A stretch of 64,000 nucleotides of DNA from NCBI RefSeq assembly GCF_054482525.1, contig NZ_CM137006.1; one strand, 5' to 3'. Made by a program: the position numbers and the translations under genes. Of this stretch, positions 49,992 through 53,987 are shown in pieces. Below the pieces are notes generated by a model. It was not told the origin of the DNA. It saw only the letters and a program-made list of their open reading frames with translations, and made no database searches. Each line of letters begins with the position of its first letter. Position 1 is the first letter of the stretch.

Positions 49992-50053
49992 ATCGGCGGA
50001 ACCAGGCTTTTGCTTGAATGTTCCGTCAAGGGATCACGGGTAGGAGCCACCTT

Positions 50054-51046
50054 ATGAGTCAGAATACGCTGAAAGTTCATGATTTAAATGAAGATGCGGA
50101 ATTTGATGAGAACGGAGTTGAGGTTTTTGACGAAAAGGCCTTAGTAGAAGAGGAACCCAGTGATAACGATTTGGCCGAAGAGGAACTGTTATCGCAGGGA
50201 GCCACACAGCGTGTGTTGGACGCGACTCAGCTTTACCTTGGTGAGATTGGTTATTCACCACTGTTAACGGCCGAAGAAGAAGTTTATTTTGCGCGTCGCG
50301 CACTGCGTGGAGATGTTGCCTCCCGCCGCCGGATGATCGAGAGTAACTTGCGTCTGGTGGTAAAAATTGCCCGCCGTTATGGCAATCGTGGTCTGGCGTT
50401 GCTGGACCTGATCGAAGAGGGCAACCTGGGGCTGATCCGCGCGGTAGAGAAGTTTGACCCGGAACGTGGTTTCCGCTTCTCAACATACGCAACCTGGTGG
50501 ATTCGCCAGACGATTGAACGGGCGATTATGAACCAAACCCGTACTATTCGTTTGCCTATTCACATCGTAAAGGAGCTGAACGTTTACCTGCGAACCGCAC
50601 GCGAGTTGTCCCATAAACTGGACCACGAACCAAGTGCGGAAGAGATCGCAGAGCAACTGGATAAGCCAGTTGATGACGTCAGCCGTATGCTTCGTCTTAA
50701 CGAGCGCATTACCTCGGTAGACACCCCGCTGGGTGGTGATTCCGAAAAAGCGTTGCTGGACATCCTGGCCGATGAAAAAGAGAACGGTCCGGAAGATACC
50801 ACGCAAGATGACGATATGAAGCAGAGCATCGTCAAATGGCTGTTCGAGCTGAACGCCAAACAGCGTGAAGTACTGGCACGTCGATTCGGTTTGCTGGGGT
50901 ACGAAGCGGCAACACTGGAAGATGTAGGTCGTGAAATTGGCCTCACCCGTGAACGTGTTCGCCAGATTCAGGTTGAAGGCCTGCGCCGTTTGCGCGAAAT
51001 CCTGCAAACGCAGGGGCTGAATATCGAAGCGCTGTTCCGCGAGTAA
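50054..51046 (+). CDS. rpoS: RNA polymerase sigma factor RpoS (sigma-38), full length
   Basis: ORF from [66 protein letters not shown]... (330 aa); no internal stop. Confidence 0.95.
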
Positions 51047-51061
51047 GTAAGCATCTGTCAG

Positions 51062-51098
51062 AAAGGCCAGTCTCAAGCGAGGCTGGCCTTTTTCTTTT
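51062..51098 (+). terminator. rpoS rho-independent terminator
   Basis: aaaggccagtctcaagcgaggctggcctttttctttt. Confidence 0.7.
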
Positions 51099-51165: not shown

Positions 51166-51573
51166 CTATGTGTTCATCATCTTGCGCACCAACTGCATAA
51201 ACAGCTCCTTCTCTTCTGCACTCAAACGCCCCAAAAATTCCTCATCCACACTGTCACCAATCGGTATCGCCGCAGCAAGTACCTTTTCTCCTTCGGCAGT
51301 CAGCCAGACAAAGCGACGCCGCTTGTCAGCGGTGTCATGTTCGCGTCTGACTAAGCCACGATTTTCCATTCTTGCCAACATTTCTGCCAGCGTTGCTTTG
51401 GTGCTGACGGCTGCTTCCATCAGTGCCACCTGTTCGATACCTGGTTTATCAGCAATGGCGCGCATCACCGCGTACTGTGGTTTGGTCAGGTCAGGTAACT
51501 CGTGCTGCCAGCGAGCCGTATGCTGCTGAAAAAGCTGTCGTAACTGATGGAACGCTTTATTTCGTAACGCCAT
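51166..51573 (-). CDS. MarR/SlyA-family transcriptional regulator, divergent from the decarboxylase operon
   Basis: 135-aa ORF MALRNKAFHQLRQLFQQHTARWQHELPDLTKPQYAVMRAIADKPGIEQVALMEAAVSTKATLAEMLARMENRGLVRREH... (winged-helix MarR signature). Confidence 0.8.
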   Translation of the reverse strand: MALRNKAFHQLRQLFQQHTARWQHELPDLTKPQYAVMRAIADKPGIEQVALMEAAVSTKATLAEMLARMENRGLVRREHDTADKRRRFVWLTAEGEKVLAAAIPIGDSVDEEFLGRLSAEEKELFMQLVRKMMNT

Positions 51574-51597
51574 GTAAACTCCGGGCTAATTCTCTGT

Positions 51598-51610
51598 CGC
51601 TATCATAGCG
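51598..51610. promoter_or_regulatory. Palindrome cgctatcatagcg just upstream of the MarR-family gene (operator candidate)
   Basis: 13-bp perfect palindrome 25 bp upstream of the regulator start codon. Confidence 0.35.
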
Positions 51611-51687
51611 GTTTTTCAGTGACGAAGAAGATGTTGTTACTTTTCAATCCTTGCCGCTGTGGAAATGAAGGACTATGTTAATAATAA

Positions 51688-51701
51688 CGTTCGTATACGA
51701 A
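51688..51701. promoter_or_regulatory. Palindrome gttcgtatacgaac just upstream of the UbiX-like gene (operator candidate)
   Basis: 14-bp perfect palindrome about 20 bp upstream of the start codon at 51720. Confidence 0.35.
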
Positions 51702-51719
51702 CAATTAAGAGAGTAAGCA

Positions 51720-52313
51720 ATGAAACTGATCGTCGGGATGACAGGGGCTACCGGTGCGCCTCTTGGTGTGGCATTACTGCAAGCGCTGCGGGAGATGCCG
51801 AATGTCGAGACTCATCTGGTGATGTCGAAGTGGGCGAAAACCACTATTGAACTGGAAACGCCTTACAGCGCTCGCGATGTTGCCGCCCTCGCAGACTTCA
51901 GCCATAACCCGGCGGATCAGGCGGCGACTATCTCTTCCGGCTCCTTTCGTACCGACGGCATGATCGTTATTCCATGCAGTATGAAAACGCTCGCCGGTAT
52001 CCGCGCTGGTTACGCCGATGGTCTCGTAGGGCGCGCGGCGGACGTCGTGCTCAAAGAAGGCCGCAAACTGGTGCTGGTGCCGCGTGAAATGCCGCTTAGC
52101 ACAATCCATCTCGAAAATATGCTCGCACTTTCGCGCATGGGCGTGGCGATGGTGCCGCCCATGCCTGCCTTTTATAACCATCCCGAAACGGTAGATGACA
52201 TTGTCCACCACGTGGTAGCCCGCGTGCTGGATCAATTTGGCCTCGAACATCCTCACGCCAGGCGCTGGCAAGGATTGCCGCAGGCCCGGAATTTTTCTCA
52301 GGAGAATGAATAA
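51720..52313 (+). CDS. UbiX/Pad1-family flavin prenyltransferase (B subunit of a non-oxidative hydroxyarylic acid decarboxylase; EcdB/BsdB-like)
   Basis: 197-aa ORF MKLIVGMTGATGAPLGVALLQAL... (UbiX N-terminal GMTGATG signature). Confidence 0.85.
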   Translation: MKLIVGMTGATGAPLGVALLQALREMPNVETHLVMSKWAKTTIELETPYSARDVAALADFSHNPADQAATISSGSFRTDGMIVIPCSMKTLAGIRAGYADGLVGRAADVVLKEGRKLVLVPREMPLSTIHLENMLALSRMGVAMVPPMPAFYNHPETVDDIVHHVVARVLDQFGLEHPHARRWQGLPQARNFSQENE

Positions 52314-53740
52314 TGGCATTTGATGATTTACGCAGCTTTTTACAGGCGCTTGATGACCACGGCCAGTTACTGAAAATCAGCGAAGAGGTGAACGCGGAAC
52401 CGGATCTGGCTGCCGCTGCCAACGCCACCGGGCGTATCGGCGATGGTGCACCGGCTCTGTGGTTTGACAATATTCGCGGCTTTACCGATGCCCGCGTGGC
52501 GATGAATACCATCGGTTCCTGGCAGAACCACGCGATTTCCCTCGGCCTGCCGCCAAACACCCCGGTTAAAAAACAGATTGATGAGTTTATCCGCCGCTGG
52601 GATAACTTCCCCATTGCCCCGGAGCGCCGCGCCAATCCAGCCTGGGCGCAGAACACCGTCGATGGCGACGAGATCAACCTGTTCGATATTCTGCCACTGT
52701 TTCGTTTAAACGACGGTGATGGCGGTTTCTATCTCGACAAAGCGTGCGTGGTTTCCCGCGATCCGCTTGATCCGGATAACTTCGGCAAGCAGAACGTCGG
52801 CATCTACCGTATGGAAGTGAAGGGTAAGCGTAAGCTCGGTCTGCAACCGGTGCCGATGCACGATATCGCCCTGCATCTGCATAAAGCGGAAGAGCGCGGT
52901 GAAGATCTGCCGATTGCAATCACGCTCGGTAACGATCCGATCATCACCCTGATGGGGGCCACGCCGCTGAAATACGATCAGTCTGAGTATGAAATGGCAG
53001 GCGCGCTGCGCGAAAGCCCGTATCCGATCGCCACCGCGCCATTGACCGGTTTTGATGTGCCGTGGGGCTCGGAGGTGATCCTCGAAGGAGTCATCGAAAG
53101 CCGCAAACGCGAGATTGAAGGGCCATTCGGTGAGTTTACCGGCCACTACTCAGGCGGGCGCAATATGACCGTCGTGCGCATTGATAAAGTCTCTTATCGC
53201 AGCAAACCCATTTTTGAATCGCTCTATCTCGGGATGCCGTGGACGGAAATCGACTACCTGATGGGTCCAGCCACCTGCGTGCCGCTGTATCAGCAACTGA
53301 AAGCCGAGTTCCCGGAAGTGCAGGCGGTGAACGCCATGTACACCCACGGCCTGCTGGCGATTATCTCCACCAAAAAACGCTACGGTGGCTTTGCCCGCGC
53401 GGTGGGCCTGCGTGCGATGACCACGCCACACGGTCTGGGCTACGTGAAGATGGTGATTATGGTCGATGAAGACGTTGATCCGTTCAACCTGCCGCAGGTG
53501 ATGTGGGCGCTCTCTTCGAAAGTGAACCCGGCAGGGGATTTGGTGCAGTTGCCGAATATGTCCGTGCTGGAACTCGACCCAGGCTCAAGCCCAGCAGGGA
53601 TCACCGACAAGCTGATTATCGACGCCACCACGCCTGTCGCCCCGGACAACCGTGGTCACTACAGCCAGCCCGTGGTGGATTTGCCGGAAACCAAAGCCTG
53701 GGCTGAAAAACTGACCGCTATGCTGGCCGCACGTAAATAA
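52313..53740 (+). CDS. UbiD-family decarboxylase (C subunit; EcdC/BsdC-like)
   Basis: 475-aa ORF MAFDDLRSFLQALDDHGQLLKISEEVNAEPDLAAAANATGR...; start overlaps the upstream stop. Confidence 0.85.
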   Translation: MAFDDLRSFLQALDDHGQLLKISEEVNAEPDLAAAANATGRIGDGAPALWFDNIRGFTDARVAMNTIGSWQNHAISLGLPPNTPVKKQIDEFIRRWDNFPIAPERRANPAWAQNTVDGDEINLFDILPLFRLNDGDGGFYLDKACVVSRDPLDPDNFGKQNVGIYRMEVKGKRKLGLQPVPMHDIALHLHKAEERGEDLPIAITLGNDPIITLMGATPLKYDQSEYEMAGALRESPYPIATAPLTGFDVPWGSEVILEGVIESRKREIEGPFGEFTGHYSGGRNMTVVRIDKVSYRSKPIFESLYLGMPWTEIDYLMGPATCVPLYQQLKAEFPEVQAVNAMYTHGLLAIISTKKRYGGFARAVGLRAMTTPHGLGYVKMVIMVDEDVDPFNLPQVMWALSSKVNPAGDLVQLPNMSVLELDPGSSPAGITDKLIIDATTPVAPDNRGHYSQPVVDLPETKAWAEKLTAMLAARK

Positions 53741-53750
53741 GGAGAACAAG

Positions 53751-53987
53751 ATGATTTGTCCACGTTGTGCCGATGAACAGATTGAAGTGATGGCGAAATC
53801 GCCGGTAAAAGATGTCTGGACGATCTATCAGTGCCAGCATTGCCTCTATACCTGGCGCGATACCGAACCGCTACGCCGCACCAGCCGCGAACATTATCCC
53901 GAAGCGTTCCGCATGACGCAGAAAGATATTGATGACGCGCCGATGGTGCCGAGCATCCCGCCGCTGCTGGCGGAAGGTAAGCGCTAA
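53751..53987 (+). CDS. Small subunit D of hydroxyarylic acid decarboxylase (EcdD/BsdD-like; Cys-rich zinc-ribbon-like)
   Basis: 78-aa ORF MICPRCADEQIEVMAKSPVKDVWTIYQCQHCLYTWRD... with CxxC...CxxC. Confidence 0.75.
   Translation: MICPRCADEQIEVMAKSPVKDVWTIYQCQHCLYTWRDTEPLRRTSREHYPEAFRMTQKDIDDAPMVPSIPPLLAEGKR

Follow-up and report, generated by a model that had tools for sequence, protein, structure and literature searches.

Between a MarR-family regulator gene and the UbiX-like decarboxylase gene transcribed away from it lie 146 bp of DNA (51574-51719) with two short palindromes, and the question raised by this arrangement is which of them, if either, the regulator binds. A preliminary description had reported two perfect palindromes in this divergent region, both of which we confirm, and had proposed either or both as operators of the MarR-type dimer. 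Positions are those of the window, the whole 64-kb stretch of DNA that was analysed. Our best explanation is that these 146 bp hold the control elements of the HosA/vdcBCD switch, which governs 4-hydroxybenzoate decarboxylation. In the account given here the palindrome nearer to vdcB (palindrome 2) is the operator, and the one nearer to hosA (palindrome 1) would be a hosA −10 box or its relic and no operator; we consider this account as a whole very likely.

The hosA-vdcBCD island

Sequence comparison gave a 100% match of the window to E. coli strain PCN033. The region belongs to the variable segment that follows rpoS (50018-51046), and the island is the hosA-pad1-yclC insert that the literature places in the mutS-rpoS polymorphic region. 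We found it in 2404 of 5426 complete E. coli genomes, in the chromosome in every case. Its genes and their probable ribosome-binding sites are as follows.

51166-51573, minus strand: hosA, MarR-family winged-helix repressor, 135 aa (open reading frame with NCBIfam MarR-family matches; MarR family regulator in RefSeq)
51571-51573, minus strand: hosA start codon, read as the complement (from the open reading frame)
51579-51582, minus strand: GGAG, probable hosA ribosome-binding site, 5 nt before the ATG (CTCC on the plus strand, 88-100% conserved)
51709-51713, plus strand: GAGAG, probable vdcB ribosome-binding site, 6 nt before the ATG (from the alignment; GAGG in other genera)
51720-52313, plus strand: vdcB (ecdB, pad1), UbiX-family flavin prenyltransferase, subunit B of the non-oxidative hydroxyarylic acid decarboxylase
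52313-53740, plus strand: vdcC (yclC), UbiD-family decarboxylase subunit C (NCBIfam VdcC NF041204, 790 bits, cut-off 650)
53751-53987, plus strand: vdcD, small subunit D (NCBIfam VdcD NF041205, 120.5 bits, cut-off 30)

The NCBIfam matches bear out the earlier reading of a MarR-family regulator divergent from a UbiX-like decarboxylase, with hosA on the minus and vdcBCD on the plus strand. VdcB was called with NF041206 (312 bits against a cut-off of 290), in agreement with the RefSeq annotation, and a GntP-family transporter gene on the minus strand comes next after vdcD. The window's HosA is identical at 132 of 135 residues (98%, E=2e-83) to PDB 8aga, 'Transcriptional regulator HosA', one of the entries (with six further ones) for the crystallised protein; the three residues that differ are M52I, T81A and K122Q, window residue first. 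The conservation of CTCC was counted in 59 non-Escherichia species, and GGAG is the probable Shine-Dalgarno site of hosA, as GAGAG, judged from the alignment, probably is that of vdcB.

Two side observations concern the island's surroundings and variants. A strong terminator-like hairpin (51060-51093, a 15-bp stem and then a T-run) follows directly on the stop codon of rpoS, ahead of the 3′ end of hosA, and is presumably the rpoS terminator. In RefSeq the vdcC of E. coli O145:H28 strain 12E115 (locus L083, from 1212-1297 onward in locus coordinates) is entered as a pseudogene interrupted by an internal stop; the strain's hosA, vdcB and operator are intact.

Palindrome 2 is the HosA operator

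The two palindromes are listed here; neither is assigned to a strand.

51598-51610: palindrome 1, CGCTATCATAGCG, a perfect palindrome only in Escherichia
51689-51702: palindrome 2, GTTCGTATACGAAC, the HosA operator, identical to the 14-bp HosA site and, counted from the predicted vdcB start, at about +3 to +16

Palindrome 1 is a perfect 6+1+6 repeat that begins 24 nt from the hosA start codon, exactly at the position first given for it. Palindrome 2 is a perfect 7+7 repeat at 51689-51702, not at 51688-51701 as had been stated, and ends 17 nt before the vdcB ATG at 51720, for which the earlier 'about 20 bp upstream' was a fair figure.

Repeats of this kind have a chance expectation that can be counted. 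The whole 64-kb window contains 5 perfect 14-mer palindromes (~3.9 expected) and 20 of the 6+1+6 type (~15.6 expected); neither type is enriched in it, and neither palindrome is significant alone. Perfect palindromes whose arms measure 6 or more and whose gap is 0 or 1 occur at a rate of 0.075 per 146 bp; two of them share 146 bp in ~0.4% of the real windows of that size, and in 0.46% of cases when the region is resampled with a first-order Markov model. These statistics alone may point to something and decide nothing. Conservation is the real test: in the alignments used here palindrome 2 stands up to it, and palindrome 1, taken as a dyad, does not.

Letter for letter, GTTCGTATACGAAC is the 14-bp site that was published, in its native flanks, as bound by HosA. 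Cao et al. 2018 (PMC6261655) described a 14-bp palindromic HosA TFBS, demonstrated binding by EMSA and biolayer interferometry (BLI), and found by EMSA, BLI and ITC on the exact sequence that 4-hydroxybenzoate (4-HBA) dissociates HosA from the site. The probe in their Table S1 has the native flanks, TAATAATAAC-[site]-AATTAAGAGAATAAACAATGAG; once corrected it matches the genome of E. coli 7/2 exactly, and its alignment to the window leaves GTTCGTATACGAAC unchanged.

The corrections concern the machine-read text of that table, where the site is printed on both strands as the 15-mer GTTTCGTATACGAAC (GTTTCG...) and the forward probe lacks one A at a line break. We rejected the 15-mer as the true site: the article speaks of 14 bp, the genome carries the 14-mer, and a non-palindrome cannot read identically on both strands; we took it for a reading or typographic error. 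A probe copied from the Table S1 text would carry a non-native site.

According to secondary accounts, Roy & Ranjan 2016 (Biochemistry 55:1120) found that HosA represses the HAD operon and itself, that its palindromic site lies downstream of the TSS, and that 4-HBA derepresses. The accounts consulted speak of one palindromic HosA site. Their system, the HosA/HAD operon of E. coli UMN026, is the same locus and system as ours, with the identical 14-bp site GTTCGTATACGAAC, the same flanks (TAATAATAAC...AATTAAGAGA) and the same hosA/vdcBCD divergent gene order. It differs from the window in allelic differences only; the predicted −10 reads TATGTT in the window and TATTTT in the probe-type allele, and there are a few SNPs near the ribosome-binding site.

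Palindrome 2 is the known HosA operator, and both the switch and its ligand are already published and used in biosensors, in which the operator has been reused (Cao et al. 2018, PMC6261655; Liang et al. 2019). The ligand-responsive switch that had been proposed from the sequence thus exists, with 4-hydroxybenzoate releasing HosA; the epithet 'self-contained' is slightly too strong, because HosA is reported, in accounts of this same kind, to affect fliC and motility, outside the island. As a system that is published, crystallised and already employed in in-vitro biosensors it has little discovery value. For annotation of the window, palindrome 2 can be entered as the HosA operator and palindrome 1 should not be.

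We scanned the hosA locus in one genome per species, which gave 80 loci from ~20 genera of Enterobacterales, 72 of them with a divergent vdcB. The motif GTTCG-N4-CGAAC is present in all 72 of the latter. In 68 of these it stands, with zero mismatches, 15-24 nt before the ATG of the first gene; the other four are Rahnella loci, where it lies 35-36 nt before the ATG and, in three, has one mismatch (ATTCG). Among the 59 non-Escherichia species every one of the ten outer bases is invariant (100%), against a mean identity to the window of 50% for the intergenic region. The central N4 varies (TATA, TGTA, TACA, TATG, CATA) and is mostly pyrimidine-purine, so that the consensus from the 72 species is GTTCG-YRYR-CGAAC.

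The operator is also kept in eight of the nine loci without vdcB, next to an operon starting with a VdcC-like gene, and is lost in the ninth, that of Rahnella perminowiae (L077). In the eight (L049, L057, L063, L064, L073, L076, L078 and L080, with no vdcB within 3 kb) it is found at ~2820-2880 in locus coordinates, and in at least some of them the divergent gene starts with a VdcC-like N-terminus (MxFDDLRSFL...). Enterobacteriaceae bacterium LSJC7 (L067) has a hosA-vdcB gap of 598 bp against the usual ~170 bp, with the operator 16 nt before vdcB; its intergenic region presumably holds an insertion. A further position, A51704, two bases past the right end of palindrome 2, is 100% conserved, and its left mirror, 51687, is not symmetric to it. 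A51704 could be part of a minus-strand −35 (TTGTTC), a HosA flank contact or a feature of the vdcB leader.

Within the 64-kb window GTTCG-N4-CGAAC occurs once, even with one mismatch allowed, and the window's hosA-vdcB intergenic region has no second site at up to 2 mismatches. The weak HosA-like TTTCAGTGACGAAG at 51614-51627, which fits 7 of the 10 positions, was rejected as a candidate; by our own arithmetic ~0.5 such matches per region are expected by chance.

The mechanism that we propose takes palindrome 2 as the single high-affinity operator of a HosA dimer. Each winged-helix domain would read one of the invariant half-sites, GTTCG or CGAAC, with the variable N4 centre as spacer. HosA bound just past the predicted vdcB start would block RNA polymerase, and 4-hydroxybenzoate on HosA would cause release from the operator and so induction of the decarboxylase.

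Could the palindromes instead act as RNA hairpins, either terminators or 5′-UTR structures? A terminator scan does flag both, palindrome 1 with TTTTT behind it on the plus strand and palindrome 2 with a T-rich run behind it on the minus strand, and close to the 5′ end of the vdcB mRNA palindrome 2 would fold into a stem of 5 bp closed by a loop of 4 nt. However, the predicted fold is no better than that of shuffled sequence (z=0.35), and the stems of palindrome 2 are invariant in 72 species with no covariation, which together speak for protein-DNA recognition. A hairpin of palindrome 1 would have to close with a loop of a single nucleotide, and the T-run behind it is not conserved; moreover, neither strand has an upstream gene to terminate, rpoS having its own terminator at 51060-51093. 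We give the hairpins almost no credence.

Besides the UMN026 switch, three known systems stand closest to this one. MarR/marO of E. coli is the archetype of the family: a dimer sits on a short palindrome overlapping promoter or start elements, and a phenolic ligand derepresses. The marO region carries two MarR sites, whereas only one HosA site is detectable in Escherichia, and the half-site sequence differs. PcaV of Streptomyces coelicolor (PDB 4fht, 4g9y) is the next-best solved relative of HosA (E=4.7e-16). It is a MarR-family repressor of protocatechuate catabolism and is released by a hydroxybenzoate-type ligand, but is distant in sequence, has another operator and target pathway, and is no orthologue. 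The bsdBCD (yclBCD) genes of Bacillus subtilis encode the same three-subunit UbiX/UbiD-type hydroxyarylic acid decarboxylase and are induced by its phenolic-acid substrates. Their regulator BsdA is of the LysR type, not MarR, so that the operator logic of bsdBCD is unrelated to that of HosA.

Promoters and palindrome 1

The built-in scan for sigma-70 promoters, at its threshold of 9/12, found no site in the region. Our own PWM scan is more permissive, and it and the alignments gave the following elements.

51651-51656, plus strand: TTGCCG, predicted −35 of vdcBCD (PWM scan; TTG 100% conserved)
51674-51679, plus strand: TATGTT, predicted −10 of vdcBCD, 17 bp after the −35 (TA..TT 92-100% conserved)
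51704-51699 and 51680-51675, minus strand: TTGTTC (−35) and TAACAT (−10) with an 18-bp spacer, speculative candidate hosA promoter over the operator
51602-51607, minus strand: TATGAT, −10-like hexamer, core of palindrome 1 (letters TAT.AT 98% conserved)

For vdcBCD, TTGCCG-17-TATGTT is the best plus-strand candidate, with a PWM score of 10.9 bits (top 2% of random 146-nt segments), and the equivalent TTGnCn-17-TAnnTT, at the same distance from the ATG, is the top candidate in ~60 of the 72 species. Counted from this −10, the predicted vdcB +1 would fall near 51686 and the operator at ~+3 to +16. That would put the operator downstream of the start, in agreement with the statement in the literature.

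The hosA promoter is less plain. Two minus-strand candidates straddle palindrome 2, TTGTTC-18-TAACAT and TTAATT-16-TATTAT; at 8.2 bits each they are tied as the best in the window, yet reach only the top 13% of random segments. The conserved A51704, which lies outside the dyad, fits the TTG of the first −35 and is no proof of it. If hosA does start from a weak promoter overlapping palindrome 2, HosA on a single operator would repress in both directions, and the autorepression that is reported would be accounted for.

The conserved part of palindrome 1 suggests where hosA starts in other genera. From the outer to the inner arm pair, complementarity is kept in 19%, 2%, 63%, 88%, 98% and 97% of the 59 non-Escherichia species, and other genera have CTCTATGATAGCC and similar sequences at this position. 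Several genera show a decayed left arm (TCAT, CCAT) with the hosA-direction TATCAT kept, and the Rahnella equivalent of the core is TAAGAT, which is non-palindromic. The outer pair is broken inside Escherichia too, in E. coli 7/2 and Escherichia sp. E1V33. Palindrome 1 is otherwise near-invariant within Escherichia, as is most of 51574-51650, so that its conservation there is uninformative.

Judged by the alignment, the conserved letters spell a −10 hexamer together with part of an extended −10. The hexamer ends 27-31 nt before the hosA ATG across species, all 59 non-Escherichia species keep the G at −14 (complement of C51609), and the conserved string in the hosA direction is G(-14)-C-T-A-T-n-A-T. 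TTAAAA-17-TAT[C/G]AT, with its end 28-30 nt ahead of the hosA start codon, is the top minus-strand sigma-70 candidate in ~45 of the 72 species, and TATCAT, TATGAT or TAAGAT also occurs in most of the vdcB-less loci. We propose that TATGAT (minus strand), at the core of palindrome 1, is a −10 hexamer inherited from an ancestral hosA promoter. TAT.ATA-type −10 boxes are nearly self-complementary, which is why a short palindrome arises at all, and the CG/GC flanks in Escherichia would merely happen to turn this core into a perfect 13-mer.

This promoter has changed in Escherichia. Set against other genera, all Escherichia sequences examined show an alignment gap of ~27 bp in the stretch that separates palindrome 1 from the vdc −35 (51611-51650); the hosA-vdcB intergenic length is 145-147 bp in Escherichia, where most genera have ~170 bp. 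The gap takes away the conserved TTAAAA, the hosA −35 of other genera, which Escherichia may have lost by a deletion of that size. Neither the window nor other Escherichia have a −35-like hexamer 16-18 bp upstream of TATGAT. The window's best option, TTCTTC at 16 bp, makes a promoter of 5.7 bits, and the loss of the −35 in the gap accounts for this background score. Whether the palindrome 1 promoter currently functions in E. coli is, on this sequence evidence, doubtful. That palindrome 1 is a promoter element, live or relic, we nevertheless hold to be likely.

A functionless relic of the ancestral hosA −10, kept in Escherichia because the lineage is young, would be consistent with the deleted −35 partner, the background score and the neighbouring, non-functional-looking sequence that is just as invariant within the genus. 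We regard it as a possibility of lesser weight: the hexamer still agrees with TATAAT at 5 of 6 positions and has its G at −14, initiation that is −35-independent or activator-dependent could use it, and a hosA promoter must exist somewhere while the alternatives are weak too.

Two further readings would give palindrome 1 a bound protein. Were both palindromes HosA operators, palindrome 2 would repress vdcBCD and palindrome 1 hosA. The secondary accounts do report hosA autorepression, and palindrome 1, overlapping the conserved −10-like element of hosA, would be an effective spot for it; two perfect palindromes in 146 bp are also unusual (the ~0.4% given above), and the two MarR sites of the marO region are a precedent. 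But palindrome 1 is unlike GTTCG-N4-CGAAC, of which the intergenic region has no second copy at up to 2 mismatches, its outer arms are asymmetric in other genera, and its half-site centres would be spaced more tightly than those of palindrome 2. The second HosA-like site that some other genera do have is recognisable as GATCG-N4-CGAAC and lies elsewhere, beside the vdc −35, and the accounts consulted name one palindromic site. We therefore judge a pair of HosA operators in the window very improbable. The earlier suggestion of either or both as operators holds for palindrome 2, the published HosA site, and is not supported for palindrome 1, which has no half-site likeness and whose outer arms lose their symmetry in other genera.

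The core of palindrome 1 (CTAT-S-ATAGC) might instead be the site of a different transcription factor that controls hosA. The conservation does extend slightly past the −10 hexamer (C51609 100%, G51608 and G51611 86-88%), and the 4+1+4 core is palindromic in most Enterobacteriaceae. However, the additional conserved G at −14 is in keeping with a partial extended −10, the left arm breaks the symmetry in several genera and Rahnella has none of it, and a promoter would explain a −35 at exactly 17 bp in ~45 species, which an operator would not. To our knowledge no transcription-factor consensus matches CTAT-S-ATAGC, and we consider such a site unlikely. From these comparisons palindrome 1 is probably not an operator but the −10 box of the hosA promoter or its relic.

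A distal HosA-like site in other genera

Many loci outside Escherichia have a second HosA-like site, usually GATCG-N4-CGAAC, 56-57 bp upstream of the main operator (centre to centre), with the vdc promoter's −35 following a few bases later. We found it in 34 of 71 species, against ~0.06 per region expected by chance. It is present in Enterobacter (10/10), Klebsiella (6/7), Kluyvera (6/8) and Pseudocitrobacter (3/3), and also in Leclercia and Lelliottia. None was found in Escherichia, Citrobacter or Salmonella, and it is absent from 51574-51719 of the window; the stretch that would hold it is not alignable across the ~27-bp gap.

These sites allow a reading in terms of operator turnover, in which Enterobacter, Klebsiella, Kluyvera and relatives would bracket the vdc core promoter with two HosA sites, the main operator (O1) and the distal one. 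A rearrangement would have cost Escherichia the distal site together with the hosA −35, and palindrome 1, perfect over 13 bp in this genus alone, may have compensated for the loss as a new low-affinity HosA site or as a site for another factor controlling hosA. We see only a slim chance of this whole sequence of events.

The consensus GTTCG-YRYR-CGAAC and the distal site in about half of the species could serve the engineering of HosA sensors and studies of MarR operator evolution. The loci in our scan that carry the distal site are L006, L011, L014, L018, L020-L024, L028, L032-L033, L036-L048, L050-L054 and L059-L062.
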